NCBI GenBank assembly: GCA_049423385.1
Contig: JBMSQQ010000015.1
Span: 1-46,077, forward strand
DNA length: 46,077 bases
Origin: Silvanigrellaceae bacterium
Lineage (GTDB): Bacteria; Bdellovibrionota_B; Oligoflexia; Silvanigrellales; Silvanigrellaceae
Direction: 5' to 3'
In this document: positions 11,077 to 39,459 of the stretch, piece by piece
Numbering within the stretch: the first letter of the stretch is position 1
How the letters are laid out: each line of letters opens with the position of its first letter
Made by a program: the position numbers and the translations under genes
Notes under the pieces: generated by a model
The model's database searches: none
What the model was told of the DNA's origin: nothing
Seen by the model: the letters and a program-made list of their open reading frames with translations, nothing else

Positions 11077-11141
11077 GTTTTCATCTCTCCCAAGTATGCG
11101 TTACTATACTGGCGTGATTTTTGATCGGGGAGAAGCTTTTT

Positions 11142-17662: not shown

Positions 17663-17685
17663 CGTCCCTTGAGAGGTTGCGAATC

Positions 17686-19929
17686 ATGTGCTCCGATTCC
17701 ACTTTAAAGTCTCCCTCGCTGCCGCCTCACTGGTGGCTGCAAAAGGTGCGGACAAAGTGGAATATCTTGCTCATTTTGTGCTGCACTCATCCTGAACCGG
17801 GCAAGGCTCAAAGTCAAAAGTCCCAAATTTGGCGGATTCCTGTTTCGCCCTTATTTAATGCAAATGATAATGAATTGGAGAGCGCCGCAATTCTTCGGCC
17901 AAACAGCAGCCGTTCCAGGGACTTCGACGAACTGCTCGACCCCCTTCAGGGCGATGAGATTTCACCCGCTGAAAAGCGATTGCCGGCCGAGACAATTCGC
18001 AATTTGTCCACCACAGGCGATCTGCTGAGCCGCATGGGATTGCTTGGAGCCGGCAAGGAATCTGGACGATGGGGTGGTGGTCGTTTGTCTCTGCGGGGCC
18101 ACCCCGGTGACGAGCCCGTCGTGTCATTGGGTGGTGTTCTTTTGAGTTCCGGGTTCTCGGGCGCTCATGCCGAAGACCTCGTTCCTCCCATCGCGATTGA
18201 ACGACTGAGGGCGTATCCTTTTTTTCCAGCGCTGAATTTGCCTCAGATGAGCGTTTCTGGTGGCTACGACATTGAACTTGTGCGTGAGCGTCAGGATGCG
18301 GGTCGAGAAACTTTTCTCAAGTTGGAATTACCGGCGGCGTATCACCTGGCAAATCGGACAGAAAAGTCTTGTTCGGAAGCAGAATGTCTTCAAATTTCCT
18401 GGGCGGGGAGTTTTTTTCGGGGAACGTCGGAAGTTCTCGACGATCGAAACACACCTCAGGATCCGCGCGATGACACAACTCAAACGATCAATGACCGTGA
18501 CCTGAGTCGATTGTCGGCCGTTGCGCAATATTTTTCCGAGAGCGGCAATGGCACCCGATGGGATTCCACATTTTTGCTTGGGGCAGAGTCGCGTTCCACT
18601 TCGGGCTTGCCTCTTTCGAGTGCTTCTGAGTTCAACAGATTGAAACGTCGCCTGGTTTTCGTTTCGCAAAAGTACTCACATTTTTCCCCGAGCGATGGTT
18701 TGAAAGCGACGGTTCGCTTTGCAGGAAGACAGGAATCTGCTCACCATGAGCAAGACCTGATGAACAATTCAGGACAAATTCGTGCAGACCAACGGGATGA
18801 GAAATTCATCTCCGCTCAGGGCAATCTGATGATTCCCCTCGGTTCAGGCGGACACGATGAACGCGTACTGTTGCACACCTCACTGGAGGCCAATTCGTTT
18901 GGCAGCGAAGTCAATGTGGCCCGGAAATTGTTGGATCACGCAAATACGAATGACGACAATTTCCGCAGTACAGTGACCAATGGCCACCTGTACAGTCTGA
19001 CTGCGGGGGCGGGATTTGGCATGGCGCTGGGAGGCACGGATTCACTCAAATCATTGCTGAATTTATATTCCAACAGGTTTTCCGTTGAACGAGTATGTGG
19101 TGTTTTTTCACCGCAGGTTTTGTGCTCGGAAAGCAAGAACGAAGCCTCGGGAAATTCTGTTGGCGGCAATTTGGAGTGGAAGCGGACCATTGGCAGGGAC
19201 GCCTTGATTTATGCACTTGCCGGACAATTGCATCGTCTTCCAAGACCACTCGAGGTGGCAGGTCGGTCCGATGGCGTCGTTGCCAATCCAGAACTCAAGT
19301 CCGAGTCGACGCTGGCGACGGAGTTGGGATTGGAGAGTCGATGGGGGAGGTTGAGCTTCTTTTTTGCACGCGACCAAAACCTGATTTCCGCGCAACAGGT
19401 CAGTCCATTTCTTTTGCGATATGACAACACGGCAAGCGTTCAGCGCGCTGGAGTGGGTGTTGATTCGCGAGTTCAGGTCTTCGGTTTTGATGTTTCAGCC
19501 GATGCCGAGTGGTTGCAGGTGCGTATTTTGAAGGGTCAGTCAGGTCAGCGGGTGCTGCCATTTGTCGCGGCAAGTCGATGGTCGACTGCCGTGGAAAGAA
19601 ACTTTGTTCTTTTGCCTTCCATCGGGGCCTGGAGCGGACGCTTCTTGTCTGAAATCAGGTATGACGAGAGTGGTTCCTACTGGCTGGACTTTCAGGGCGT
19701 CAGTCGACTCAAGCCACCTGGCTTGGTTGCACTCGCCATCGGCTCTCCCTTTCGGGTCGCAAATAGCCAGTTGGAAACCCGTTTCGCTGTTCGAAACCTT
19801 TTTGATGAACCTGCGTCCCGATTGGGACTTGCTGGTCAGCCCGAGAGACGAGTGCCATGGAGTTTGTCCCCCGTCCTCCCCATCGAAAGGCGGACATTTG
19901 AGGTCGGATTCCGCTTGCTTGACCCTTGA
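17686..19929 (+). CDS. Divergent TonB-dependent receptor-like outer-membrane protein
   Basis: Plug-like LSLRG...VSLGGVLL...IERL, amphipathic beta-strands, RLPRPLEV, ANPELKSE (cf. GNPxLKPE), VRNLFD, terminal RTFEVGFRL. GAGAGG RBS before ATG 17686. Confidence 0.75.
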   Translation: MCSDSTLKSPSLPPHWWLQKVRTKWNILLILCCTHPEPGKAQSQKSQIWRIPVSPLFNANDNELESAAILRPNSSRSRDFDELLDPLQGDEISPAEKRLPAETIRNLSTTGDLLSRMGLLGAGKESGRWGGGRLSLRGHPGDEPVVSLGGVLLSSGFSGAHAEDLVPPIAIERLRAYPFFPALNLPQMSVSGGYDIELVRERQDAGRETFLKLELPAAYHLANRTEKSCSEAECLQISWAGSFFRGTSEVLDDRNTPQDPRDDTTQTINDRDLSRLSAVAQYFSESGNGTRWDSTFLLGAESRSTSGLPLSSASEFNRLKRRLVFVSQKYSHFSPSDGLKATVRFAGRQESAHHEQDLMNNSGQIRADQRDEKFISAQGNLMIPLGSGGHDERVLLHTSLEANSFGSEVNVARKLLDHANTNDDNFRSTVTNGHLYSLTAGAGFGMALGGTDSLKSLLNLYSNRFSVERVCGVFSPQVLCSESKNEASGNSVGGNLEWKRTIGRDALIYALAGQLHRLPRPLEVAGRSDGVVANPELKSESTLATELGLESRWGRLSFFFARDQNLISAQQVSPFLLRYDNTASVQRAGVGVDSRVQVFGFDVSADAEWLQVRILKGQSGQRVLPFVAASRWSTAVERNFVLLPSIGAWSGRFLSEIRYDESGSYWLDFQGVSRLKPPGLVALAIGSPFRVANSQLETRFAVRNLFDEPASRLGLAGQPERRVPWSLSPVLPIERRTFEVGFRLLDP
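19717..19749 (+). repeat. 33-bp imperfect inverted repeat, copy 2 (encodes PGLVALAIGSP)
   Basis: CCTGGCTTGGTTGCACTCGCCATCGGCTCTCCC; matches the reverse complement of 17504-17536 at 28/33. Confidence 0.7.
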
Positions 19930-19989: not shown

Positions 19990-21201
19990 ATGAGAAAATC
20001 AGTCTTTCCGCTACTTACGCTTTTGATTTTCTTTTTCACCGGCTGCTCGTCCGCAGAGCGGTCCGGGAATTTGGGCGATTTCTGCGGAGGGGCGACTGGC
20101 AATGCAAGGGTGGCTGGCTTGGCCTGGCTGGCAGGTTCTCCAACTCAAGCAAATGGCTTGTGCTCAATTGATTCAGACGGCAAGGCGAGCTTGAGTTTCA
20201 GTTTGGATCCCGAGAGTCGGGACCCGCTCCTTTTCCGCGACAACGCGACATCAGTTCAAATTCTTGTGGAGCGTTTTGCCGGCCGCCAGGCAAGACCCTC
20301 GCGTATCACCTGGTTTTCTGGCACCAGCGAAAAATTGGGGCAACGAGGAGATTGGCCTCGAAATGTTTATGGGATTAATTTGTTGAGTGCATCCGAGGCT
20401 GTCGTTACTGGATTTGATCATGCCGAAATTCAAATTGTGAATTGGCAGTCCAACGTTTTTGCTTCGCCCGCAGCCCTCGTTTCCCCGGTGTCCCAGGAGG
20501 TTGTGATTCATCCAATCCAAACCCTGTTTTCCAACGATTGGTTTGCGGCCATCGACAATGGGTATGATCTTGTTCAGTATGCTGCGAAAGAATCCAGGGC
20601 ATTTGTCGTCGATAAAATCAAACAACGGCAACCGCCTGTCATGGACGTTGTGATTGCCGACAAACTCACTGGGGGAGTTTGTTTGAATGCATTTCAAAGT
20701 CTTTCAGTGTCTCCCTCATCGGTTCTCTTGAGTTGCAATCCACAATATTTCGGAGCCGCCGCGGGCAATCGTGTGTCCTTGTTTTTGGTCGAGTTGAATT
20801 CCGAAGGGCAAATTTCGTCTCGTGAGCTGGTGCATTTTGATGGGGATGAAATTCAGCGGATTGACCTCTGGGGTTTGGATGAAACTTCTGGAAAGGTTTT
20901 TCTCGGATACAAAAAAACAGCAATCAATGATTTTGAAGGTGTTGTGGTTCAATCTGGCTGGCTTGATTTGCGCACTGGCAGCTGGCTGCCCGAAGCAAGG
21001 TTTGCGGGTCCGTTGCAGCATTTGGCGAACGGGAATGGAACTGTTGTATTCTGCCAGGCCGATGCAACGCATTGTTCGAAGAGTCAGTTTGCGTTTATTG
21101 GCGGCAGCTCGCCCACAACGGATGCCTCAAGCGTTATTCGCCTCGAGTTGAATCCCTCACTTCCGTTTTTGTCATTTGCGCATGAATTGAGAAGCAAATG
21201 A
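19990..21201 (+). CDS. Lipoprotein, beta-rich (possible beta-propeller partner of the receptor)
   Basis: MRK + hydrophobic core + FFTGC lipobox; GAGGA RBS; several paired Cys. Confidence 0.75.
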   Translation: MRKSVFPLLTLLIFFFTGCSSAERSGNLGDFCGGATGNARVAGLAWLAGSPTQANGLCSIDSDGKASLSFSLDPESRDPLLFRDNATSVQILVERFAGRQARPSRITWFSGTSEKLGQRGDWPRNVYGINLLSASEAVVTGFDHAEIQIVNWQSNVFASPAALVSPVSQEVVIHPIQTLFSNDWFAAIDNGYDLVQYAAKESRAFVVDKIKQRQPPVMDVVIADKLTGGVCLNAFQSLSVSPSSVLLSCNPQYFGAAAGNRVSLFLVELNSEGQISSRELVHFDGDEIQRIDLWGLDETSGKVFLGYKKTAINDFEGVVVQSGWLDLRTGSWLPEARFAGPLQHLANGNGTVVFCQADATHCSKSQFAFIGGSSPTTDASSVIRLELNPSLPFLSFAHELRSK

Positions 21202-21938
21202 GATTCGGTTCTTTCCCGATCTTCACTGCGCTCGCTGTTTCCCTTTCCGTTCATGCGACTTTTCTTTTGTCAGTCGGATTGACTGACTCTTCGTCACGTC
21301 TCCCGATTCAGACGGGCCAATCCCAACGGGTGGTGGTGAAATTGGCAAACAAGCAGAGGGAATCCGATTCAAAAACCACGCCAGCCGCTCGTTCAAACTC
21401 CAAAAAATCAACATCCTTGCCGCCTTTGAACAGAACATCTGAGCGACGAGCAAGCGATGAAAAACACTTGATTGATGGTGAACAGCCGACGCCGGAGTCA
21501 ATTCACAACGGGTCCGACAGTGACTTCTCGGGCATTGTGTCCGAAAAGACGCAATCCGAAACGGAAATTGACGCTGTGTTGAAAGGAGTCGTGCAAAAAC
21601 TGGCTGCGCCATGTCGATCGATATCCCTTCCTTTGCATTGGATACGCCTCAAGGAATTTTGGCCGCGGAGATACCGCGCAGAATTCGAGTTTCGTGGAGT
21701 CCAGAAAGACAATCCCATCAAACTCACCCGACTGGTCCCCGAGGCCGAGGTATACCAGGCTCTGGACGATAGGATTTTCAAAAGCTTTTCATCCTGCCTG
21801 AATGAACAGTTCTCAAAGCAGGACTCCGGAACATTGGTTTTGAATGGAATTTTGACTCCGGAACATGGCGAGGCATACTCGGTACTCATGGAATTCAGCC
21901 CTGGCGACACACAAGTCGCTTCCCAACAAGGAATTTGA
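21198..21938 (+). CDS. TonB/TolA-like energy transducer (putative)
   Basis: N-terminal TM with SLSVHATF (SxxxH motif), then a low-complexity Ser/Pro/Lys linker and a small C-terminal domain; ATGA overlap with the upstream gene. Confidence 0.6.
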   Translation: MRFGSFPIFTALAVSLSVHATFLLSVGLTDSSSRLPIQTGQSQRVVVKLANKQRESDSKTTPAARSNSKKSTSLPPLNRTSERRASDEKHLIDGEQPTPESIHNGSDSDFSGIVSEKTQSETEIDAVLKGVVQKLAAPCRSISLPLHWIRLKEFWPRRYRAEFEFRGVQKDNPIKLTRLVPEAEVYQALDDRIFKSFSSCLNEQFSKQDSGTLVLNGILTPEHGEAYSVLMEFSPGDTQVASQQGI

Positions 21939-23472: not shown

Positions 23473-24930
23473 TCAAACAAAATCGTGGGGCATGTAGTCT
23501 CGGGTGCTGCGAAAGCTGAAATTGGGAGAATAATTGATCAGGTTCGTCAAGCGGCTCGTGTAGAGGCAGGCGTAGTTTTCCACCTGGGCGGCGAACCTGG
23601 AATTCTGGTGCCCCGTTTTCATCAGCTGTCCCCAGATGGGATGAAAATTCTGATGATATTTACGCATGCTCCGCCTGAGCGATTCACGGGTTGTGTCCCG
23701 CTTTCCCGAAATGGATTCGATGGATGTCCTGAGTTGCTCCAACCGTTCGTTCTTGGCGCTGCGGGGTTTGTCTGCTGAGGACGATTCAAGATTATCCATC
23801 TCGATTTGCATTCTCTGGAACTCGTCGTCCAGATCATCCTTGAGTTCCAGAAGTTCCTCATAGCGTCTGAATTCGTCCTTGAATTTTGTCAGGGTCCCGA
23901 GCTCAGCCTCGAGCTCATTGATGACCAGCATGGTTCGCCAGCCAAGTTCTTTTTTACTGCGCAAAATATCGCCGTAGATATGGTCACCGACGTAGAGGAT
24001 TTCAGGACCCGAACGGATTCCCAATCGCTCGTGCAATTGCTTGAAATTGCCGCCTTGAAAGATCTTCGATTCGGTGTTGCGGATGTCATCCAGGTTTTTA
24101 AGAAGTCCGGAATGAGGGTCAACCTCATACAGTGGATTCAGCGACATGAAAAAAGAAGGTTTTGCAGCTCCAGTGACGACAACATCGAAATATTCGAGCC
24201 AATCCATGCTCAATTTTCGAGACTCATTGCCAAAGATGTAGTTCATGACGACATGTGTGTAATCCCAGAGACTGTTCGTCACGATGAAAACCTTGCGTCC
24301 CGACTGGCGAAAACGATTGAGGGTCTCCTTCAGGAGAGGGTCTCGTTGAATGTATTTCGACGGTTCGCTCGCCACTTTGAGTTTGATGCTTCCATCCCGA
24401 TGGCAAAGGTCTATCGAGTTTCTGACATCACGATAGATTTCCAAAGGTGATTTCGTGATCCGCGTGGGGCGCTGTGATTTGAGATCAATCAATTGCGCAA
24501 AGAGATATGCATCAGCCAAAGTGAACAAGGTGTCTATAAGCGCATAATCCGGTTCTTCATAAGATTGCATCAACGATGCGTCATAAAGTGCGCGACGTTC
24601 CTCGCGAGCCAATTCCTTGAAGCCATGATAGGCCACCTTCACATAGCGATGACGGTCAAGCTTGATGATGTTGCCACGCTGTTTGTCGATTGCCAGGCCC
24701 CGGATCATGTGATCGATATCGAATTTCCATTCGAGAATATCTTCAGGATAGCCAACGTTAACCAGTTTTTTAAGGGTCTCATTATAGGCCAGGACTTCGA
24801 AGGCCTCAGGTTTGTACAACGCAAGCGTGTAATCCATGTCGAACCCAACGGCCCGAATGTTACGCATGTTCAGCGAGCGGTTGCAATAAATTCTACGTGC
24901 TGCCTCGATGTCTGAAACTGAAATATGCAT
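23473..24930 (-). CDS. HAD-IG family cN-II-type 5'-nucleotidase
   Basis: IYCNRSLNM, GFDMDYTLA, IDTLFTL, VTNS, AAKPSFF, LYVGDHIYGDIL, WRTML, ACLYTSRLTN. Likely start is ATG 24930. Confidence 0.93.
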   Translation of the reverse strand: MHISVSDIEAARRIYCNRSLNMRNIRAVGFDMDYTLALYKPEAFEVLAYNETLKKLVNVGYPEDILEWKFDIDHMIRGLAIDKQRGNIIKLDRHRYVKVAYHGFKELAREERRALYDASLMQSYEEPDYALIDTLFTLADAYLFAQLIDLKSQRPTRITKSPLEIYRDVRNSIDLCHRDGSIKLKVASEPSKYIQRDPLLKETLNRFRQSGRKVFIVTNSLWDYTHVVMNYIFGNESRKLSMDWLEYFDVVVTGAAKPSFFMSLNPLYEVDPHSGLLKNLDDIRNTESKIFQGGNFKQLHERLGIRSGPEILYVGDHIYGDILRSKKELGWRTMLVINELEAELGTLTKFKDEFRRYEELLELKDDLDDEFQRMQIEMDNLESSSADKPRSAKNERLEQLRTSIESISGKRDTTRESLRRSMRKYHQNFHPIWGQLMKTGHQNSRFAAQVENYACLYTSRLTNLINYSPNFSFRSTRDYMPHDFV

Positions 24931-24943
24931 ATTTTTTTCCGGT

Positions 24944-25546
24944 TCAGGATTGACGAATAAACTGCACACCCACTTGATAGAAGTGGTGTCCATTCTCTTC
25001 AAAAATCTGTTTGACGTATACGACTCGCCCCTGTCTGACCAATTCGGCGCTGCCCTTTGCTTTAATCGTCATGTTCGAGAAAACGCGTCCGGTTTGCATC
25101 AACTTGGTTGGGATACGGCCCCTGAAGCTGAGTCCTCCGGTCGACAAATCGTACAATCTTCGTCTGAGGATTGTCCCTGAGTCGAAAGGGTGGGTGATGA
25201 GTACAATCGCTTCTTCACTGTTGGAAAAAACCTTTCGATCATCAGCTCTTGATTGCGGGAGCAAACTGATGTGATGCATCGGGAAGCGAATGTCTGTGCC
25301 GTGTGCAAACAAGGCCGCACTCATGAGTTGAAAATCCCGACAAATAAGCGAGAACTCGGTGCTGCTCACCACGTCAGGCAAGACGTCCACGGGAATCGGA
25401 TTCTTGAAAACAACGGACTCATCGATGATTCCGACTGGGGTGCAGAGGAAAGAAACCGACCTGCCACGAGGATTCAGAATCAACGGTTGTTTTTTTTCAA
25501 CGAGATCCGCGAAAACCTTTTCAAATTCATTTTTGGATACAATCAT
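24944..25546 (-). CDS. PilZ-domain (c-di-GMP-binding) protein
   Basis: RADDR (RxxxR) and DLSTGGLSF (DxSxxG); GRVVYVK; GVQF. Confidence 0.85.
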   Translation of the reverse strand: MIVSKNEFEKVFADLVEKKQPLILNPRGRSVSFLCTPVGIIDESVVFKNPIPVDVLPDVVSSTEFSLICRDFQLMSAALFAHGTDIRFPMHHISLLPQSRADDRKVFSNSEEAIVLITHPFDSGTILRRRLYDLSTGGLSFRGRIPTKLMQTGRVFSNMTIKAKGSAELVRQGRVVYVKQIFEENGHHFYQVGVQFIRQS

Positions 25547-25548
25547 GG

Positions 25549-26961
25549 TCAGTTTTCCTCGGCAGCAAGAGTATCGTTGAATCTGTCGAGACGTCGCAGT
25601 ACGGGTCTTGTGAGTGGCCAGCTGTAGGTGAATCCGCCATTGAAACCTATTTTTGATCCTGAAAAATCACTGAGAGTCGATTGTGTTGATTCGAAGTTCA
25701 AATTGAAAACAAAGCGCCAATTGCGCGACATATCAAGATACGCCTGACCACCGCTTCCGATGATGCTGTCGGTGCGCTTGACCAAGGTTGCAGAACCATC
25801 CGTGATGTTGTTGATCTTGATTCGCTGAATGATGAAGTCTTCCCTGTCCAGACGCAAATAGGGTTGCAGACGGATGTTCCAGGCGATCGGAAAATCCATT
25901 GAAAAGCGGGCCCCCAGTCGCGAAGAATCATTTTGAATCGAAGCCGATTTTTTATTCAACCAGTTCAGGGTCACGTTCGCTGTCGAGGCAATCCTTGTCA
26001 AATAAAACAGATTGTCCTGGATGGCGCTAAAAAATATCCCTCTTCCTGCCTGGCGAACAGACCAGGTGGTGAAGGAGTTGCGGGGATCTTCCTTGTTGAT
26101 CTCTGTCCGCAGCGGGGAATATAGCGTCGCAATATAAGTTCCGGGAATTCGCCATTGAAACCATGGCACCAGCTGCTCAACATTGCGAACGCTGTCAGAA
26201 ACCTCATTGGGCGCGCCCAAAAAGTTCTGACTGGAGCCAACTCTCTCGAAGTCGAGCATGGCATGAACGCCAAACTGCCAGGGAGTTGCTGAATATCTGA
26301 TTTCACTGGCGAGCTCGTGCGAACGCAGCATGTCCCTGGTCGGGAAGATGAAGTCGGCAGATTTGAATGTTTTGAACCACTGACCAAATTTCGCAAGTTG
26401 ATCCTCGTTGGTCCGCAAGTTCTGCGTGTACCGGTAATGAGTCACGAATGAAACATTGTTTCGCTTGATGGGACCCCAGCCCGCGGCACCGTTCAGGATC
26501 AGCGCCCAGCGCGGTTCCTCGATTGTTTTCTGGCAAGCATTGTTGCACTCGGCAACTCCAGGGTTTGTTCGGGAAATACTTTCATATCCCCAAATCGCAC
26601 CTGTCGAGCCGAACCAGTTTTTCGTTCCTGAAAAATCATCCCTTGGTTTGAGATGAGGTGGTGCTGCCGCAGGTTGGCCGTATGGGTTTTGATTCCGTGC
26701 GCCACCCGGAGTTGGATTGAATACTGCAGGCGGCGGAGCGGGCGGAACGATCACGTTCGGCTGCTGTACCGGATAAGGTGGAGGAGCGGGCGGCCACGGC
26801 TGCCTTTGAGGTTGTGATTGTGGAGGATATGAATTTCGGGGCGCTGGCCTGATTTGCCGGGATGATTGAGCAAAGCTGGTGCTGCTTGTTGCGGATGCAA
26901 CAAAAACACAACACAGCGCTGTCCTCGAATGGCAGAACATCAACGTCAGAGAATTCTCCAA
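25549..26961 (-). CDS. Secreted protein, probable outer-membrane beta-barrel with a Pro/Gln-rich N-terminus
   Basis: Signal peptide ending SFA|Q, PPAPPP-rich linker, alternating aromatic beta-strands ending GFNGGFTYSW. Confidence 0.7.
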   Translation of the reverse strand: MENSLTLMFCHSRTALCCVFVASATSSTSFAQSSRQIRPAPRNSYPPQSQPQRQPWPPAPPPYPVQQPNVIVPPAPPPAVFNPTPGGARNQNPYGQPAAAPPHLKPRDDFSGTKNWFGSTGAIWGYESISRTNPGVAECNNACQKTIEEPRWALILNGAAGWGPIKRNNVSFVTHYRYTQNLRTNEDQLAKFGQWFKTFKSADFIFPTRDMLRSHELASEIRYSATPWQFGVHAMLDFERVGSSQNFLGAPNEVSDSVRNVEQLVPWFQWRIPGTYIATLYSPLRTEINKEDPRNSFTTWSVRQAGRGIFFSAIQDNLFYLTRIASTANVTLNWLNKKSASIQNDSSRLGARFSMDFPIAWNIRLQPYLRLDREDFIIQRIKINNITDGSATLVKRTDSIIGSGGQAYLDMSRNWRFVFNLNFESTQSTLSDFSGSKIGFNGGFTYSWPLTRPVLRRLDRFNDTLAAEEN

Positions 26962-27073: not shown

Positions 27074-27631
27074 ATGCGTCAATTTTTCGGAATTGTATTG
27101 ATTTTCTGTCTGATTGCTTTTGTCAGTCCGCTTGCCGAAGGCAAAACCCCTTGCATCACCCGCCAGGAGCTGACGGCCCGTTCAACAGGAATTGTTCAGC
27201 GCTATCATGCTTCCAATGGGGACATTATTCGCAAGGGTGACCCTGTCATCGAATTTGACTCGCGGCTTTTGCGCGCCGGCTACAAGGAGGCGCAAGCTGC
27301 GGTCGACGCGGCCAAGGGGAATGAGGAACTTGCTGCGGACGCACTTCTGCGTCTTGAAAAACTGCAGGGCAGCGAAGCGGTGACCGCCCAGCAATTGGCC
27401 GAGGCAAAAATCCGGGTCAGCCAGGCTCGCGCTCTTCGGCGGCAGGCCGAAGCGGCAGCCGAGCGCGTCAAGGTTCAGCTGGATGACACCATGCTGCGGG
27501 CTGAGGTTGGCGGTCGGGTTCAAGGCCTGCCAACCATTCTTGGTATGGTTGTTCAGGTTGGTCAATCACTTGGCAGCATCGAAGTGGTTGGCGCAGGTTG
27601 CTCCGCTGTTGCTCCATCGAAAAACAACTAA
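27074..27631 (+). CDS. RND efflux periplasmic adaptor, short form
   Basis: Signal peptide, lipoyl half ARSTGIV...GDIIRKGDPVIEFD, coiled hairpin, second lipoyl half LRAEVGGRV...GMVVQVGQSL; GGGAGG RBS. Confidence 0.85.
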   Translation: MRQFFGIVLIFCLIAFVSPLAEGKTPCITRQELTARSTGIVQRYHASNGDIIRKGDPVIEFDSRLLRAGYKEAQAAVDAAKGNEELAADALLRLEKLQGSEAVTAQQLAEAKIRVSQARALRRQAEAAAERVKVQLDDTMLRAEVGGRVQGLPTILGMVVQVGQSLGSIEVVGAGCSAVAPSKNN

Positions 27632-27642
27632 GGAGCTTCGCG

Positions 27643-30600
27643 ATGAATCTTGCGCGCTTCTCCGTCAAGCGGCCCGTGACTTCAGGAATTATCAGTCTCG
27701 CACTTTTTATTCTGGGTGTTTTTTATCTCATCAAGATGCCGGTTTCCTTGTATCCCGACGTCTCCATTCCGTTCATTTCCGTCACCGTTCCCTATCCGGG
27801 CGCATCTCCGGAGCAGATTGAATCCGCAATCGTGAAACCCATCGAAGCCGAAGTCGCAGGACTCAAGAAAATTTCGCGGGTGATTGGTGTTGCCCGGCCA
27901 GGCTACGGGCAGTTGATTCTCGGCTTCAAAATGTCTGCCGATGAGCAGGAAGCTGCCGATTCGGTGCGCGAAAAGGTGTCGATCGTCAAAGGTCGTTTTC
28001 CACAAGGTGCCAAAGAACCAATTGTCGCGAGAGTTGATGTCGGGGCCACGCCGATTCTGATTTACGGGGTCGAGACGCAAAAATCAGCCGAAGAAACGCA
28101 GCGCATTCTCGATGACGTTTTACTGCCTGAGCTTCGCCGCACCGAAGGTGTCAACGAGGCAAAAGTTCTGGGTATTGGCGACGAGAGGGTCCAGCTCACT
28201 CTGGATGCGCGCAAGCTCTCGGATCTTCGCGTTGCTCCTCTCGATATTTTCGAACAACTCTCTGCCAAGATGGCAGTCATACCCTGGGGCGAAGTCACCC
28301 AAGACAGCCAGGTGATGTCGGTTTCCCGTAGCCTTCTCCCAGCAGATCTCAAATATTGGGAAAGTCAACGTGTCACATTGCGTGATGGACGAACCGTCTT
28401 CCTGGCGGATGTTGGTGAGCTGAAAATTGTCCGCGACGAGACCGCTTCCAGCGTCTTCATCAACGGCAAGCGTGGACTGGGTTTGGTGATCACAAAGCGG
28501 GCCGATGCCAACACCGTCGGAAGTGTCAAAGCGGTCAAGAAAACTCTGTCCCGCATCACTCTCCCAGACAATGTCAAGCTGTTCAGCATCGTTGATCAGA
28601 GCTCATTCATCCAGGAAAACTCAAAAGAAGTCTGGATCGCACTTTTTGCGGGTGGTGCCTTTGCGGTTTTGATTATTTTGTTGTTTCTCACTGATATCCG
28701 CAGTGCACTTATTTCAGCTACGGCATTGCCAGTGAGTATCGCAGGCTCATTTATTTTCATGAGCTGGCTCGACTTCTCGGTCAACATGATGAGCCTTTTG
28801 GCGATGGCTTTGGCGATTGGACTTTTGATCGACGACGCCGTGGTGGTGCGCGAGGCGATTTACACTGAACTCGAACATGGAGCCACTCCGGCCGAGGCTG
28901 CGGTGAAGGGAACGGATCGTGTTGCCGCAGCCGTGATGGCGACCTCTTTGGCGGTCATCGCCGTGTTTCTTCCGGTGGCAGGCATGGAAGGAATGGTCGG
29001 GCAATTTTTCAAGCAGTTTGGCGTGACAATCTGCATTGCCGTTGCGATTTCGACTTGGGTTGCGTTTACGCTTGATCCGATGCTGTCGGCCTATTTCGCT
29101 GGCAAACCGCGTCCTTTTCAAGGTGCTTTTTGGGACAAATGGCGCTCGTGGCTTGTGCGCACCGAGCAGGTCATTTCTGGTTGGGCAGTGGCTTCTTTCA
29201 AGCGACCTGTCACGGTCTTGATTCTCGCGGTTGTGACATTGTTTGCAGCCACAGGCCTGAGTCTTTCCCGCGGCTCCGACTTTCTTGCGTTTGAAGACCG
29301 TGGCCAGTTCATCATCAACATCCGTGGAAAATCTGGTTCCACCCGTGAAAAAAGCGAGAAGCTTGCCGAGCAAACCCTTGAGAGAGTCAAAGACTTCGAG
29401 GGATTGCAGGAAGTTTTTGTCACCGTTGGTGAACGTGGCGACGAGACTCTTGTGCAGATGAGATTGGTTTTCAACGCCAAAACCAAGCGCAAAACAGGGC
29501 TCTTGCAGATGCAAAAAATGGCGCGTGAACGCTTGAAGGATATCGATGGCGAAGTGCTTGTGATGGATCCACCACCCATCGAAGGCATTGGTGGCGAGGC
29601 GCCATTGAGTGTCTACGTCTATGGAGAAAATCTCGCTGAAACACGCAAAGCTGCCGAGGATCTTCTTGCCAAAATCCGCGCTCTTCCTGGCGTGGGAAAT
29701 GCGAGGCTCGAGACGGCAGCATTCGCAAAAGGTTTGGATGTTTCTTTCAAACCACTGGACCTTGGTTTTGCAGGTTCGGCAACCCAGGCAGTGGAACTCA
29801 CTGGTCGGCTGGCGCTCACTGGCGTCGAGGCCGGATTCGTTGGCGACAAAAACACTCCTTTTGTTCTGCGCCTGGCCGACAAGGATCGCACGATCGAAAA
29901 TCTATGGAACAATATCTATGTGCCCAGCATGCGCGGGCCAATGGCGTTGAATCAATTTGCGGATCTGCAGGAATCGTATCGCCCGCGCGGCATCGATCGC
30001 GAACGTCGCTCGCGCAAGATGGTCATTTGGGGAACACTCGACCGCACGCGCACCTATGGGGTCGTGCTCGGTGAAGTTCAGAAACTTGTTGATGCGGTTC
30101 CTGCGCCATTTTCAGCTGAAATCCAAGGCGACAAGGAAGTCTTTGAAGAGATGGTGGGCAGTTTCACTCTGGCCATTGTCGGCAGTTTGTTTTTTATCTT
30201 CATCATCTTGGCTGCGCAGTTTGAAAACCTGTTGCGTCCGTTCGTGATTCTTTTGTCGCTTCCACTGGCAGTGATTGGTGGATTCGCCGCACTTTACGTC
30301 GCCGGGCATCAATTGGCCCTGGGCGCACTCATTGGAATGGTTTTCCTTATCGGACTCGCGGCCAAGAATGGAATCCTTCTTGTGGACGCTGTTGGTGTGA
30401 AGGAAAAAACGATGCCACTCTCAGACGCAGTTCGCGAGAGTGTGAAAGAGCGTTCGCGCGCGATTCTGATGACGTCCATTGCAATGATTTTCGGAATGAT
30501 TCCCACCGCGGTCATGCGTGGTGGAGGATCAGAATTCCGCTCGCCGATGGCACTGGCCATCATTGGCGGTGTGCTCTCGAGTACCTTCTTGTCGTTTTTT

Positions 30601-32058
30601 GTGGTTCCTGCAGTGTTTGGAATCATCGATCGCTTGCGATCGTCCAAAAGTAAAGCAACTTCTGCCGTTGGTGCCATTACCGCAGGGGTCATCCTGGTTG
30701 CGTTGGGTTGGAATCTTCTGGCGAGCGCAACAGCCAATGCGCAGACATCTTCGACATCCTTTGCGGGCGTTTCGGCCACCGATTCCAGTGCGGTGGGTCG
30801 AGAATCACTTGTTGCCCAGAAAGCCAATATGTCAGCGGTCCTGCGACTGATCAACGAACTGAAGAAAGATGGACCAGACGAGATCCAAATCGAAGGGGCG
30901 GATCATGCTGCAGCCCAGGCGTCGCGCTCTGCAATTGAGAGTGTGTTTGGCGGCGCGCGTCTTGAGTATGGCCAGGAATGGTTCAAGCCAGGCTATTCGC
31001 AATCGTTCACTCTTCCTCCACCACCTGTCGGACCAGGTGCGATCAAGACAGTGATTGTTCCCCAACAGCAGCGCGTTACCAGTGTTGGCTGGCAGATCCC
31101 TGTTCTGAACATCCAGGCGATTTACGGCTGGGTGATGAGAAATGCGTTGCGCGTGCAGGCTGATCGCATTCGTGAAGCACGCTTTGAATCGGGTACCCTG
31201 GGAGCTGCACAGCTTCTGTTGCAGACAGAACTGGCGGTGCAAACCGTACGGGTCAACAAGGGATTCGTCGAGATCAGCAAGGCTCGTGAGACTATTGTTC
31301 GTCAACGCCTTGCCGCAGGACTTTCGACCCGACTGGAACTCAATCAGGCAGAGGCAAGCACGCTTGCCGCAATCGCCCAGTGGGAACAAACCAAGGCGGA
31401 AGAACTCAAGGTGCGCCAACAGTTCCTGCAGCAGGTTGGCAAGAGTTTCCCGGACGACGGAGTTGGTGTTACGGCCTTCCCTTTCGTGGGTGAAAGACCA
31501 TTCCAGTCGACCGCTCTGGAAGCCATGAAGTCCGTGCACAATGCGCAAGTCAAAAGCACCGAACTGACGGATGCGGCATTTTATCCCACTCTCAGTGTAG
31601 AGCTCGGCTACTCAAACAAATCCTTCGACACCTCACCACCCGCGCAGAAATTTGCTGCGCTCAAGGCTCGTTGGGATATTCTCGATGGCGGTGGACGCTC
31701 TGCGATGCGTGGACGCAACATGCAGATGGCCAACGATTTGTTGGCCCAGGCAAGGCAGCTGGAAATTCAACTCCGGAGTTCCCACGAATCACTGAAAACG
31801 CGGCAAGAGGCTTTCCAGCGCGCCCGCAGTGCGGCGGAGTTTGGTCAAAAGGCGGCAGCTTCTGCTCAGCATCAGGCATTGCAGGCTTTTTCGGCTGGTT
31901 TGGCCCGTGCGGTGGACGTGCGTGCTGCCGATGAGGCAAAGCTGAAGGCGGATTTTGCCAAGTTGCAATTGGATTTCGCGTTGCAGGGTTTGGCACTCGA
32001 AAGTTTGGCTCTCACCAACAGCTGGAACAGTTTCATCCGTTCGAATGGTCAGCCGTAA
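27643..32058 (+). CDS. RND efflux permease (AcrB/HAE1-like) fused to a C-terminal TolC-like outer-membrane factor domain
   Basis: AAGGAG RBS; SVKRP, YPGASPEQIE, IGLLIDDAVVVRE, AAKNGILLVD, RSRAILMTS. After residue ~1000 an extra hydrophobic segment, then OMF-like repeats RLAAGLSTRLELNQAE, FYPTLSV, WDILDGG, FSAGLARAVDV. Confidence 0.92.
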   Translation: MNLARFSVKRPVTSGIISLALFILGVFYLIKMPVSLYPDVSIPFISVTVPYPGASPEQIESAIVKPIEAEVAGLKKISRVIGVARPGYGQLILGFKMSADEQEAADSVREKVSIVKGRFPQGAKEPIVARVDVGATPILIYGVETQKSAEETQRILDDVLLPELRRTEGVNEAKVLGIGDERVQLTLDARKLSDLRVAPLDIFEQLSAKMAVIPWGEVTQDSQVMSVSRSLLPADLKYWESQRVTLRDGRTVFLADVGELKIVRDETASSVFINGKRGLGLVITKRADANTVGSVKAVKKTLSRITLPDNVKLFSIVDQSSFIQENSKEVWIALFAGGAFAVLIILLFLTDIRSALISATALPVSIAGSFIFMSWLDFSVNMMSLLAMALAIGLLIDDAVVVREAIYTELEHGATPAEAAVKGTDRVAAAVMATSLAVIAVFLPVAGMEGMVGQFFKQFGVTICIAVAISTWVAFTLDPMLSAYFAGKPRPFQGAFWDKWRSWLVRTEQVISGWAVASFKRPVTVLILAVVTLFAATGLSLSRGSDFLAFEDRGQFIINIRGKSGSTREKSEKLAEQTLERVKDFEGLQEVFVTVGERGDETLVQMRLVFNAKTKRKTGLLQMQKMARERLKDIDGEVLVMDPPPIEGIGGEAPLSVYVYGENLAETRKAAEDLLAKIRALPGVGNARLETAAFAKGLDVSFKPLDLGFAGSATQAVELTGRLALTGVEAGFVGDKNTPFVLRLADKDRTIENLWNNIYVPSMRGPMALNQFADLQESYRPRGIDRERRSRKMVIWGTLDRTRTYGVVLGEVQKLVDAVPAPFSAEIQGDKEVFEEMVGSFTLAIVGSLFFIFIILAAQFENLLRPFVILLSLPLAVIGGFAALYVAGHQLALGALIGMVFLIGLAAKNGILLVDAVGVKEKTMPLSDAVRESVKERSRAILMTSIAMIFGMIPTAVMRGGGSEFRSPMALAIIGGVLSSTFLSFFVVPAVFGIIDRLRSSKSKATSAVGAITAGVILVALGWNLLASATANAQTSSTSFAGVSATDSSAVGRESLVAQKANMSAVLRLINELKKDGPDEIQIEGADHAAAQASRSAIESVFGGARLEYGQEWFKPGYSQSFTLPPPPVGPGAIKTVIVPQQQRVTSVGWQIPVLNIQAIYGWVMRNALRVQADRIREARFESGTLGAAQLLLQTELAVQTVRVNKGFVEISKARETIVRQRLAAGLSTRLELNQAEASTLAAIAQWEQTKAEELKVRQQFLQQVGKSFPDDGVGVTAFPFVGERPFQSTALEAMKSVHNAQVKSTELTDAAFYPTLSVELGYSNKSFDTSPPAQKFAALKARWDILDGGGRSAMRGRNMQMANDLLAQARQLEIQLRSSHESLKTRQEAFQRARSAAEFGQKAAASAQHQALQAFSAGLARAVDVRAADEAKLKADFAKLQLDFALQGLALESLALTNSWNSFIRSNGQP

Positions 32059-33149
32059 TATTTTCCAAACCTGTTCTTGAGAAACAATTCCAGCGGCACA
32101 TCTTCTTGTCGCACAAAGCCGCTTTTCGGTATTTTACCTTCGTGATGCAAGTCAAGAACCGCACAAATTCCAGCTGCGGTTGTGATCTGGATGGCTCCCC
32201 AGTGCTCACCATCAATGTCCTGGTGATAAATCTTGTGCGCGTAGCTTTCCTGACTCAACACGCCGTTGCGGTTGCCTTGAACAGTCACAATGATGATCAC
32301 AACATCCTGTTTGGTTGTGGGGATTGCCCGTTCAAAAATCTTGCGCAGGTTGTCCCTGTCCTGGTTGAGCTTCAAATCATTCATCAGCAGAGCGATGATG
32401 TCGCGGTGACCCGGATAGCGGACGCTCTTGTAGTCGAGTGATTTGGCTTTTCCCGCAAAAGTTTCGGCAAGTGTGCCCAAGCCGCCCGAGGTGTTGAACG
32501 CCTCGTATTCCAATCCATCGAGGCTGAATTTTTCGAGTCCTTCAAGCGGCTGAAGCAGTGTGAGTTTGCCGTTCACCACGGCTTCGCAGGGGTTGCCGTA
32601 TTCGTTGATGAGACCTTCGGTGCTCCAGGTCAGGTTGTACTTCATCGCGTTGTGCGGATATTTTGGCAGCGCACCCACGCGCATCTTGATGTGCTCGATG
32701 CTCTCGAAAGATTTTGCCAGGCCGTTGGCAACAATCGAGATGAATCCAGGAGCAAGTCCACACTGTGGGATGAATGCCAGTTTGGAATCCTCTGCCAACT
32801 TTCGTACTGCCTTTGTCGTGGCCACGTCTTCGGTCAGGTCGAGATAGTGCACTCCGGCTTTTTTTGCGGCGGTCGCGATTCCCACATTGCAGTGGTATGG
32901 AGCGCAGCTCACAACGTAACTGTGCCCTTCGAGAGCTTTCTCTACAGCGCCTGTGTCGTTGAGGTCCAATCCTAGGAATGATGTATTTTTGAGCATCTTG
33001 CCGTCTGCTGTGAACGTGGCTGATCGGGCCACATCGAGCTGCACATCTGCAGCAGTGACCGCGTAGTCGCCTGATTTGGACAAAAGGGAGACAACCAGCT
33101 TGCCTATCTTTCCGCAGCCCAAGACCAGTATTTTCGCTTTGTTTGCCAT
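32049..33149 (-). CDS. Saccharopine dehydrogenase / lysine 6-dehydrogenase family protein
   Basis: GCGKIG, HYLDLTEDV, CGLAPGFI, MRVGALP, YNLTWSTEGLINEY, EAFNTSGGLGTL, RYPGH, AIQITTA; GGAGAG RBS before ATG 33149. Confidence 0.92.
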   Translation of the reverse strand: MANKAKILVLGCGKIGKLVVSLLSKSGDYAVTAADVQLDVARSATFTADGKMLKNTSFLGLDLNDTGAVEKALEGHSYVVSCAPYHCNVGIATAAKKAGVHYLDLTEDVATTKAVRKLAEDSKLAFIPQCGLAPGFISIVANGLAKSFESIEHIKMRVGALPKYPHNAMKYNLTWSTEGLINEYGNPCEAVVNGKLTLLQPLEGLEKFSLDGLEYEAFNTSGGLGTLAETFAGKAKSLDYKSVRYPGHRDIIALLMNDLKLNQDRDNLRKIFERAIPTTKQDVVIIIVTVQGNRNGVLSQESYAHKIYHQDIDGEHWGAIQITTAAGICAVLDLHHEGKIPKSGFVRQEDVPLELFLKNRFGKYYG

Positions 33150-33265
33150 TATTTTCTCTCCATCTGTCTGTTCTTCAATAGAGGGTGCGACTGGCTTTTT
33201 GTCCGTCACTCATGCTAGGTTTCCGCTCAACAACTCAGCTGAAAAGTGAGTTCCAAGGAGCAGTC

Positions 33266-36826: not shown

Positions 36827-38179
36827 TCAGGAACGGTTCAGGTTCGTAAAGTAGATTGCCCGGATATCAAGTCCGCCGAGCGTCAGGTGCTCGCAAATTT
36901 GCCTGAGTTGTCGAAGTTCCTTTTGAATGGCGCGCCAAGTCTCCTCGCTGGGACAAAGTACAACACCGCATGCTTTGCCATTCTTCCTCGAGAGAGAAAG
37001 CATCATATCGGCGAGGCGTGATCCAAACTGTTGATAGAGTTTTTCACTGCCGCCGCGGGACTCATTCGACATGCGGATTCCAAACGGGGGGTTCGCAAGA
37101 ATCCAAAGGCAATCACCTGAGGAAACTTTCGCAAGATGCATGTTTGGCTTGCACGAGTCGACCAGAAAGCTCGCGGCCTCCGCCTTTATCGGGATTCTTG
37201 CTTGTGCCTCGGCAAACCATTTGGCCGTCGCTGTGCAAAGAGCGGGATCAAGGTCTTCTCCGAAAAATGAAACACTTTTAACGCTCCCGCTCATGGCCTG
37301 TTCCAGGTTGCCCAGCTTTTTTTTACGCACATGAGCAAATGACTTTTCCTTGAAAAATGGCAAGCATGGATAAGACCAACGCGAGATTTCGGATAACAAT
37401 TGCGAGCATTTTGTAATGGAAAGCGCAGACTCATGCAGAAGGGTTCCGGTACCGCAAAATGGATTCAACACGTGTGATGGAGTTTCAATTCCGAGTTGTT
37501 CCTTGCTGATTTCCGCCAGGCGTTGCACGAGGCATGATGCGATGTCTTCGCGCAGGGGCGCTGCATGCTGAAAGGTTTGCTTGTGTCCACGCTTCCAAAA
37601 CGAACGCCCACCAAGGGAAACAAAGATTTCCAGGACCTCTCTTTCAAGAGTGATATCCAGAGCAACGGGCTCTCCTTTTTCACTTCGAGCAGTTTCATTT
37701 TTTCCCTGAAACTTGATTTTGCTGAGGGCATCCAAAAACAATCTTTTGATGCGGCCTTCGTGATAAAGCTGACTGTTGAGTGAATCGACACGCACATCCA
37801 ATGATTTCCCGTCAACGACTGGCAACCACAACTGCCAATCGGTTTCGGAGACAATTTTTTCGAGTTTTGATTCAGCAGAGCATCGTGATCTCAGTATCCT
37901 GATTTTGATGTCCGAGAACACGAGGCCTTCGAACAGCAGCTCATGAACCGCATCGAATGGCAGATTTTCAATCCTCACATTGTTACCGTGGATTTCGACC
38001 TTTGTCTGGGCCTGCGGATCACTTGAGGTGTGGCCCGTGAGAAGTGTCTCGACAAAGCGTTTGCCAAGCTCGACAAATCCTGGAGGAATTGAACACTCCA
38101 CTGTGTGGAGCTGCGCGTGGATGTGTTTTTTGATTCTGCGTTCAAGTGCCTTGTCTGCCAAAATCGCATTCCCTTTCAT
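36827..38179 (-). CDS. THUMP-containing RlmL/YpsC-like RNA m2G methyltransferase
   Basis: KRGHK...APLREDIA, NPFCGTGTLLHE, GEDLD, ANPPFGIRM, LGGL. Confidence 0.85.
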   Translation of the reverse strand: MKGNAILADKALERRIKKHIHAQLHTVECSIPPGFVELGKRFVETLLTGHTSSDPQAQTKVEIHGNNVRIENLPFDAVHELLFEGLVFSDIKIRILRSRCSAESKLEKIVSETDWQLWLPVVDGKSLDVRVDSLNSQLYHEGRIKRLFLDALSKIKFQGKNETARSEKGEPVALDITLEREVLEIFVSLGGRSFWKRGHKQTFQHAAPLREDIASCLVQRLAEISKEQLGIETPSHVLNPFCGTGTLLHESALSITKCSQLLSEISRWSYPCLPFFKEKSFAHVRKKKLGNLEQAMSGSVKSVSFFGEDLDPALCTATAKWFAEAQARIPIKAEAASFLVDSCKPNMHLAKVSSGDCLWILANPPFGIRMSNESRGGSEKLYQQFGSRLADMMLSLSRKNGKACGVVLCPSEETWRAIQKELRQLRQICEHLTLGGLDIRAIYFTNLNRS

Positions 38180-39459
38180 TTTCGTTCACCGATTCTTCGA
38201 TTCTGGGAATCCGCGATTCTTGCTGTCAATTGTTCCCAGTCTTCTCCAACCGAGACGCTCAGTTCCAGAGATTCTCCTGCCGCGGGGAGTTTTCTCAATG
38301 GAACGATGATGGGACTCCAGTGGTCACATTGGTCTGCCTCACCTGGGATATTTGAAATCGAAATATTTTCTGTCAAATGCGCACGGAATCCAAGAATGAG
38401 AACCGGGCAACGCAACGATTGGTTCACATCGAGCCTTGATTTGCCTACAGGCGCACTTTTTCCAGCAGCAGGCGGTGGTGCCAAGGGGACTGTGAACATT
38501 GATTTCGGGCGGCTCACTGCTTCGTAATCGCCAGCGCGAACTGGATGTGCGAAAGAAATATTGGAGAAATCCAGCTGCTCGCGAATGCGCAGCACCGGCT
38601 TCAGCCAGTCGGCATCGTTTTTACCTGACACCTTGTTCAGCAGTTCAATGCGGTTCTTCAAGGGGCCTTGCTGAAGGTCGACAAGTTGAGCAAAAATTTC
38701 CACGGATTCAGGTATGCCTTTCACCTTCTGTTTGCCCAGTCGGGAAAAAACATCGCGCAGGGTTGGCACGACCCCTTCCTGGAAGGGGTCGTTTCCAAAC
38801 AATTCGCTTACAACGTGGGTTATACCCACCGGAAGATTCACATCGGATGAATTGTTGTGATGCACGATCAGTTTCTGTTTGTCCTTTGCCGGAAGCGAAT
38901 CCCTGACCTTTTTCAGAATTTTGACCGAACCCGTTTCCTCGACGGCATCAACTTGCTGCGCGCCTGCCGCCAAAGCGTGAAGTGCCAGCAATCCGGTTCC
39001 GGAACCCACATCCACGACCTTTGATTTCTCATTGACCGATCGTTTGATCGCTTTCTCGTAGGCTGCGCAGCGCGGCGCGTCCGCGAGCATCGCCCATTGG
39101 ATCCACGGGTCGCCAAAACCATCCAGAATACCGTCGTTGGTCTGCTCCCCGGTCGAGGTTTCAACCAGGCATTGGGCAGCCTTCATTTCCATGATGAGCT
39201 GATCGATTTCTTCCTGATGAGGCAAGCCGGAGACAATTTCCCGGAAGTCCTGGCGCAGACGACCCGACAATGCCGAAGGCTGGACCCCTTGCTGAACAAG
39301 GCAAAGAAGTTGAACAATTTCAGGCGTTAGATTGAATTCTCCAGCAGATGCGGAGACGCGAGCCCTGAGCAATCCCTGCTCGTCGATTCTGAGCCGCAGC
39401 GCGGACGAAGGTCGCACTGAGGCTTTTTTGCTGGTTTTTTGCGGGTTTTTGGAAGTCAC
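38176..39459 (-). CDS. PRMT-like class I SAM-dependent methyltransferase
   Basis: MLADAPRCAAYEKAI, VVDVGSGTGLL, VDAVE, VVSELFGNDPFQEG, GIP, GFRAHL, DHW. Confidence 0.82.
   Translation of the reverse strand: MTSKNPQKTSKKASVRPSSALRLRIDEQGLLRARVSASAGEFNLTPEIVQLLCLVQQGVQPSALSGRLRQDFREIVSGLPHQEEIDQLIMEMKAAQCLVETSTGEQTNDGILDGFGDPWIQWAMLADAPRCAAYEKAIKRSVNEKSKVVDVGSGTGLLALHALAAGAQQVDAVEETGSVKILKKVRDSLPAKDKQKLIVHHNNSSDVNLPVGITHVVSELFGNDPFQEGVVPTLRDVFSRLGKQKVKGIPESVEIFAQLVDLQQGPLKNRIELLNKVSGKNDADWLKPVLRIREQLDFSNISFAHPVRAGDYEAVSRPKSMFTVPLAPPPAAGKSAPVGKSRLDVNQSLRCPVLILGFRAHLTENISISNIPGEADQCDHWSPIIVPLRKLPAAGESLELSVSVGEDWEQLTARIADSQNRRIGERK

Follow-up and report, generated by a model that had tools for sequence, protein, structure and literature searches.

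Contig JBMSQQ010000015.1 of a Silvanigrellaceae bacterium (assembly GCA_049423385.1) was analysed from position 1 to 46,077; this whole stretch of 46,077 nucleotides is called the window here. On its plus strand lies a gene in which a permease of the resistance-nodulation-division (RND) type and a TolC-like outer membrane factor (OMF) share a single reading frame. Directly before it stands the gene of a small periplasmic adaptor, which we call the mini adaptor. An earlier note on this DNA had described the fusion, had overlooked the reduced size of the adaptor and had proposed that the linker between the two parts exports the channel, which signal peptidase I then releases. The two genes and their parts are as follows.

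27074..27631 (+): mini periplasmic adaptor gene, 185 residues; lipoyl (barrel-sandwich) and alpha-hairpin domains only; predicted signal peptide at residues 1-23 (about 27074-27142)
27350..27385 (+): RLS motif, R93-x3-L97-x6-T104, at the hairpin tip of the adaptor; R93, L97 and T/S104 each kept in 33 of 33 sequences
27643..32058 (+): RND-OMF fusion gene; 1471 codons (27643-32055), then TAA at 32056-32058
27643..30630 (+): RND permease part, residues 1-996, HAE1-like, 12 membrane segments (ACR_tran match, motifs)
30742..32055 (+): OMF (TolC-like) part, 438 residues; about 27 N-terminal residues disordered, followed by two helix-strand-strand-helix-helix repeats
30961-31419 and 31564-31971 (+): the two OEP repeats (Pfam OEP)
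31312..31329 (+): first periplasmic tip, AAGLST; A192, G193 and L194 kept in 30, 32 and 27 of 32 alignment rows
31891..31908 (+): second periplasmic tip, SAGLAR; A385, G386 and L387 kept in 30, 32 and 27 of 32 alignment rows

Pump and channel in one reading frame

The frame is open for 1471 codons without interruption, as the earlier note had stated, and an AAGGAG sequence stands 7 nucleotides before its start codon (ATG, 27643). Its first part is a complete RND permease. Pfam ACR_tran covers residues 4-995 with 652 bits and is itself matched from position 2 to 1020 of 1021, i.e. over its full length. The proton-relay motifs that had been claimed are present as well: LLIDDAVVV (D397, D398) and LAAKNGILL (K908) match those of 8f3e in the alignment, and ERSRAILMTS was found by reading the sequence. 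We take the Asp pair of transmembrane helix 4, the Lys of helix 10 and the Arg/Thr of helix 11 (AcrB numbering) to be the proton relay. A crude hydropathy scan of the fusion gave the 12 segments of the RND part and an extra one at residues 1005-1029; no segment was seen in the last 440 residues. The designation of the pump as HAE1-like holds insofar as the nearest solved structures are HAE1 pumps, with 8f3e the closest (E 1.5e-90); at the level of subfamilies it does not, since the NCBIfam cut-offs were missed by NF033617 (593 bits versus 1250) and by TIGR00915 (432 versus 940). Thus the RND part is a divergent member of its family for which no subfamily name is justified. At its 3' end the fusion gene overlaps the 3' end of a convergent saccharopine-dehydrogenase-like gene (32049-33209, minus strand) by 10 nucleotides (32049-32058); this gene lies downstream of the fusion in 11 related loci too.

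The C-terminal part belongs to the OMF family. A Pfam scan gave, besides ACR_tran, OEP in two stretches, with 43.9 bits for the whole protein and 49.1 bits for the C-terminal part alone (cut-off 22), which agrees with the two OMF-like repeats that had been read in the last 440 or so residues. The AlphaFold2 model of the channel part (32 alignment rows; pLDDT 84.5, pTM 0.74) shows the same pattern twice: a helix (45-69), two strands (71-80 and 109-122) and two helices (124-191 and 197-232) in the first half, and a helix (257-278), two strands (283-294 and 302-310) and two helices (316-384 and 390-424) in the second, in the numbering of the channel part. In this numbering helices 124-191 and 197-232 are connected by a turn that carries the first of the two periplasmic tips, and helices 351-384 and 390-424 by one that carries the second. 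Foldseek aligned the model of the single chain over its full length with TolC, ST50, VceC, CmeC, CusC and OprM (TM-score 0.65-0.72, E 2e-17 to 1e-13, 12-17% identity). The TolC fold has, in each chain, four strands, two long helices and two pairs of shorter ones, and the model conforms to this. With four beta-strands per chain and a full-length match to TolC-like proteins, the modelled part is therefore a complete OMF fold and not a mere helical remnant, and the earlier assumption that it folds as an OMF is borne out at this level. A search of the PDB by sequence with the channel part returned nothing relevant; the best match was aequorin (E 1.5).

The first two barrel strands are connected by a strongly conserved loop of 28 residues (30982-31065, channel residues 81-108), PGYSQSFTLPPPP, with W80, P83, G84, Q87 and P107 nearly invariant; the model is of low confidence there (pLDDT 50-59). 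The outer loops of TolC are short. The conserved loop could be a cap or plug.

Ordinary OMFs are separate gene products with an N-terminal signal peptide; here the signal-like segment is internal (residues 997-1033). On the contig of the window OEP was matched only inside the fusion frame, so that the earlier statement that the window holds no separate tolC gene is correct. Three separate, ordinary OMF genes are found on other contigs of the genome.

The fused form is widespread among relatives. A search with residues 1000-1471 returned 18 protein clusters, all of 1464-1498 residues and 49-92% identical over the C-terminal part. In sequence the channel part is very divergent: when it was compared by phmmer with 1.84 billion representatives, only 14 proteins were found at E <=0.001. 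The seven best matches were three full fusions (1462-1477 residues), two partial fusions (725 and 885 residues), which still include the C-terminus of the RND part, and two fragments (433 and 360 residues). A distant stand-alone relative of 425 residues has a hydrophobic start at its own N-terminus (E 3.6e-25, 28% identity). Genome surveys were done with one genome per species. The channel part was found in 17 of the 34 genomes of the order, and a profile made from it alone matched 22 of the 131 genomes of the phylum. Twenty of these matches, from three families, are strong (E 3e-68 or better) and lie in frames of 1387-1666 residues or, where the contig ends within the frame, in truncated ones of 1059 and 734 residues; the two weak ones (E 1e-9 and 2e-8) are 422-residue frames that look like ordinary OMFs. 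A stop codon that would terminate the RND part is present in none of the 20 genomes, and the fused form persists down to 32% identity of the channel part. One genus, represented by 13 genomes of which several are in 1-3 contigs, has no fusion.

A long frame of this kind could also arise if a stop codon had been lost or if the sequence had been misread or misassembled, and the channel part would then be nonfunctional. The fragmentation of the assembly (183 contigs) and the low OEP score of 44-49 bits would fit such an artefact or decaying gene. However, the recurrence of this architecture in 18 protein clusters and in 20 genomes, at identities as low as 32%, stands against it, as do the 9 invariant and 48 nearly invariant columns in the alignment of the channel part and the confident full-length TolC-like model. 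The junction was also found on contigs from other sequencing runs, which bridge it; no RNA run was listed as containing it. One of them (38,961 nucleotides) covers all 801 bases of the junction region with 5 changes, all silent. Another (20,249 nucleotides) covers 30300-31016 with 35 changes, and 22 of the 32 listed ones are silent. There was no insertion or deletion in any, and no stop codon after the listed changes had been applied. Judging from the sequences compared, the fusion is neither a chance product nor an assembly artefact; the probability that it is one is negligible, and we regard that explanation as already refuted. The presence of an RND permease-OMF fusion at this locus is thereby confirmed.

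The junction between the two parts

Between the last residue of the RND part and the first of the channel part lies a segment of 37 residues, which is composed as follows.

30631..30654 (+): basic n-region RLRSSKSK, residues 997-1004, predicted on the cytoplasmic side; contains TTG 30637-30639
30655..30720 (+): uncharged stretch ATSAVGAITAGVILVALGWNLL, residues 1005-1026, putative h-region or 13th membrane-crossing segment (hydropathy)
30721..30741 (+): c-region ASATANA, residues 1027-1033; signal peptidase I predicted to cut after A1033 (30741/30742)
30742-30744 (+): Q1034, first residue after the predicted cut

The elements stand exactly where the earlier note had placed them. Their conservation was studied in 39 collected junctions, which represent 35 distinct strings. 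Two well conserved blocks flank the junction in an alignment of 19 proteins, in which no other stretch is conserved less. Its layout, in contrast, is kept in the 35 distinct junctions while the sequence drifts. The net charge before the hydrophobic core is at least +3 in 33 of the 35, the best mean hydropathy over nine residues is 2.2-3.4 in all of them, and in most homologues the uncharged stretch has 12-24 residues.

Cleavage sites were looked for within 14 residues from the end of the core, and 45,972 windows elsewhere in the same proteins served as the background. A-x-A occurs in 21 of the 35 junctions versus 14.2% of the background windows, and [AVS]-x-A in 29 of the 35 versus 30.9%. The loose -3/-1 rule is obeyed by all 35 junctions; since 83.5% of the background fits it too, it is uninformative and was dropped as evidence. 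The middle residue of the A-x-A motif differs widely (ANA, ARA, AWA, AHA, AEA, AFA, APA, ADA, AKA), suggesting that it is the pattern that is selected. Four distant members (32-46% identity) keep the site pattern as well: AFA/E, SQA/A, ARA/Q and IAA/E, where the slash marks the site. With its basic n-region, h-region and small residues at -3 and -1, the junction looks like a Sec-type signal peptide. A lipoprotein signal was considered too and rejected, there being no conserved lipobox cysteine in the junction alignment.

The interpretation that we consider probable is that the two genes form an efflux module and that the fusion is a polyprotein cut by signal peptidase I. The first 996 residues would insert into the inner membrane as a normal, proton-driven RND permease with 12 helices and a cytoplasmic C-terminus. 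The basic stretch would remain inside, and the hydrophobic segment would cross the membrane as a 13th span and start the Sec export of the 438-residue channel part. Signal peptidase I would then cut after the A-x-A site, here after A1033, so that Q1034 becomes the new N-terminus; the RND would retain the 13th span as a stub. The freed OMF would be inserted into the outer membrane by BAM and then trimerise. In this way pump and channel would be produced in equal numbers from a single message, a 1:1 ratio being the presumed benefit. Finally, the secreted mini adaptor would bind the channel tips via its RLS hairpin tip and thereby bridge channel and pump. Genes for signal peptidase I (G000:C35) and BamA were found in the genome. 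We infer export, cleavage and the cut site from the patterns described above, and to that extent the sequence comparisons and models support what the earlier note had proposed, namely export by the linker and release by signal peptidase I.

A different possibility is that the channel precursor is begun separately at the in-frame TTG (30637-30639) and that the fused chain is a read-through by-product. Such a start would yield a textbook N-terminal signal peptide, and the TTG stands exactly where the basic stretch starts, both in the window and in the related loci L009 and L010. Yet 11 of 19 homologues have phenylalanine where the window has the leucine of this TTG, so no start codon is possible there. 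Upstream of the core, neither L011 nor L013 contains an ATG, GTG or TTG, and the only such codon of L040 is two residues away from the core. Of the 16 junctions read (that of the window and those of 15 loci), only 3 have a Shine-Dalgarno-like site before a candidate start. Moreover, as the RND frame is not ended by a stop in any of the 20 genomes, the fused chain would be made in any case. Because neither a start-type codon nor a Shine-Dalgarno-like site is conserved before the core, the fused chain appears to be the normal product, and we consider a separate start very improbable.

It is also conceivable that the chain is exported but never cut. The 13th span would then anchor the channel part, and a single polypeptide would reach from the inner to the outer membrane. 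Several observations fit this: in many homologues the uncharged stretch has 19-24 residues and could be a stable helix; the linker of the window itself comprises about 35 residues from the core to the first helix; and a covalent link could offset the RND-binding domains that are missing from the adaptor. The difficulty lies in the distance to be spanned. In the model the first helix of the channel part is followed by a 25-residue helix up to the barrel, and the channel fold would therefore start at the equatorial belt. Lying one such helix below the beta-barrel, this first helix should be far above the top of the RND head; from the dimensions that we assume for AcrB and TolC, it is presumably well over 100 Å away from the inner membrane. 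In L039, however, the end of the core is separated from the first conserved channel helix by just 11 residues, and only 4 residues in L039 and 6 in L040 follow the A-x-A-like site before that helix. With 4-6 residues between site and helix an uncleaved tether is hard to fit. It would also leave the enrichment of A-x-A unexplained, and we know of no precedent for BAM inserting a barrel whose chain remains attached to the inner membrane. All in all, a permanent tether seems unlikely to us, though less so than a separate start of translation.

Several points weigh against the polyprotein interpretation. That the chain is cleaved, where its products go and what they do are predictions from sequence and models. 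An uncharged stretch of mostly 12-24 residues could suit a stable, uncleaved membrane anchor in many homologues, and in this genome the TTG at the start of the basic stretch could initiate a separate channel precursor. The geometric argument uses the lengths of secondary structure elements and assumed dimensions of TolC and AcrB in place of measured coordinates. As the homologues are related, the junction counts are not independent trials, and 6 of the 35 junctions have no [AVS]-x-A in the defined window; four of these six (P0017, P0018, P0024 and L041) show other small-residue sites by eye. Finally, the mini adaptor is without the two domains by which adaptors bind the RND in solved pumps.

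The mini adaptor and the neighbouring genes

The mini adaptor gene ends 11 nucleotides before the ATG of the pump. TIGR01730 matches its product with 88.4 bits (cut-off 94.9), and only at positions 19-166 of 322. The AlphaFold2 model (pLDDT 87) consists of a signal helix, three strands (within 30-61), a hairpin of two helices of 33 residues each (64-96 and 105-137) and three further strands (within 140-170). Foldseek placed it on the lipoyl and hairpin domains of AcrA (5v5s_D) with a root-mean-square deviation of 1.5 Å over 145 columns. As it covers less than half of AcrA, the TM-score is 0.73 by query and 0.41 by target. Judging from this model, the beta-barrel and membrane-proximal domains are absent and two of the four domains of a full adaptor are present. 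The RLS motif at the hairpin tip has the same spacing as R119/L123/S130 of MexA, as given in the available part of an adaptor review (PMC4446572).

The short form is not an exception of this genome. A search for relatives of similar length returned 47 proteins, of which 46 have 143-206 residues; the last, of 307 residues, is a weak match. Among longer proteins a single weak match was found, an ordinary adaptor of 396 residues (E 4.5e-4). The mini adaptor gene lies directly upstream of the fusion in all 17 loci for which upstream DNA is available (10 of 10 near and 7 of 7 distant ones). All 33 sequences compared share two cysteines, C27, which follows the predicted signal cleavage by four residues, and C176, close to the C-terminus. 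We infer that they form a disulfide that closes the lipoyl domain at the point where the beta-barrel would follow.

Ordinary adaptors are encoded in the genome too, in frames of 363-418 residues on other contigs. A split adaptor was considered and rejected: no orphan second half was found in this genome (90.6% complete), and the other matches of TIGR01730 all lie in frames of 363-702 residues. One further adaptor, in a 363-residue frame (G000:C17:34572-35321), matches TIGR01730 at positions 1-61 and 137-321 only. Without a recognisable hairpin, it may from its sequence represent the opposite reduction to that of the mini adaptor. A complex prediction for the channel part with the mature mini adaptor scored 0.00 against a mark of 0.32, which carries no weight either way.

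On the prevailing view, an adaptor requires its beta-barrel and membrane-proximal contacts to engage the RND and to activate it. A bolder interpretation is that polyprotein and mini adaptor belong together and constitute a different way to build an RND pump, in which pump and channel are made as one chain, cut at the membrane and joined by a lipoyl-hairpin sleeve that is stapled by the disulfide C27-C176 and does without the beta-barrel and membrane-proximal contacts. We find this possible but rather doubtful. If it were true, the role of the adaptor in opening the channel and in sealing would be separable from its role in binding the pump, and the 13th span left on the RND might also join in the assembly.

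On the other side of the mini adaptor, a divergently oriented gene is conserved.

25549..26961 (-): conserved divergent neighbour, 470 residues, Pro-rich N-terminus; no Pfam or NCBIfam match

This gene stands next to the module in 10 near and 4 more distant loci of the same family; in the 3 loci of other families it was not found. Possibly its product is an outer-membrane beta-barrel, to which an Atlas lead (0.95) to beta-barrel clusters points weakly; a tie to the pump is putative. Also on this contig, 23473-25002 (minus strand) encodes a full-length member of the 5'-nucleotidase family PF05761 (553 bits), which is mainly eukaryotic. The window furthermore contains long open frames (246-650 residues) without a Pfam match at E 1e-5, at 154-1821, 11121-12950, 15713-17662, 19990-21935 and 38179-39459. 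One of these adjoins a weak TonB-dependent-receptor-like frame at 17491-19926.

Relation to known pumps and meaning

By fold, the parts of the module fall in three known families; what sets it apart is that pump and channel are fused in one gene, that a signal-like segment lies inside the frame and that the adaptor is reduced. With AcrAB-TolC and MexAB-OprM the module shares an HAE1-like RND with proton-relay motifs, an OMF of the TolC fold with conserved helix-turn-helix tips, and an adaptor with lipoyl and hairpin domains and an RLS motif. Whereas those pumps are encoded by separate genes, pump and channel are here one frame joined by an internal signal-like segment, and in contrast to their adaptors the one found here has neither a beta-barrel nor a membrane-proximal domain.

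Reduced adaptors exist in nature: according to the available part of the adaptor review (PMC4446572), BesA has no hairpin and EmrA no membrane-proximal domain. In these, one of the four canonical domains is lost. In the mini adaptor two are lost, both of which contact the RND in solved pumps, whereas the hairpin and the RLS motif are kept. A form lacking both RND-binding domains is not named in that part of the review.

For the joining of pump and channel, no described natural RND-OMF fusion was found in the literature searched, including the available part of a Chem Rev 2021 review. The fused architecture is nevertheless not new to databases, because look-alike clusters in the Atlas (1436-1477 residues) carry both ACR_tran and OEP; one of them is labelled Bacteroidota on two records. 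The earlier note had mentioned CusA/CzcA-TolC fusions in Bacteroidota. The only backing that we found for this is the automatic label of that cluster.

The nearest precedent for one gene that gives rise to two membrane proteins via an internal signal is FbcH of Bradyrhizobium japonicum, the precursor of cytochrome b and cytochrome c1. In this protein a polytopic inner-membrane protein, an internal signal and an exported protein reportedly follow one another, and the chain is cut into two. It differs from the fusion described here in that it belongs to a respiratory complex and not to transport, and in that its second product stays at the inner membrane.

In current models of tripartite pumps there are three separate proteins, and the adaptor grips the pump with its beta-barrel and membrane-proximal domains. 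The lineage studied here departs from both rules in a conserved manner: a single chain holds the proteins of two membranes, and of the adaptor only the channel-binding half is left. As the organism is an uncultured freshwater bacterium, the interest of these findings lies in mechanism and evolution and not in medicine. The mini adaptor is a natural minimal construct for asking what the domains of an adaptor do. If the cleavage is true, the fusion would be a clear case of a bacterial polyprotein with products for different membranes, and it would show how cells can fix the ratio of pump to channel.

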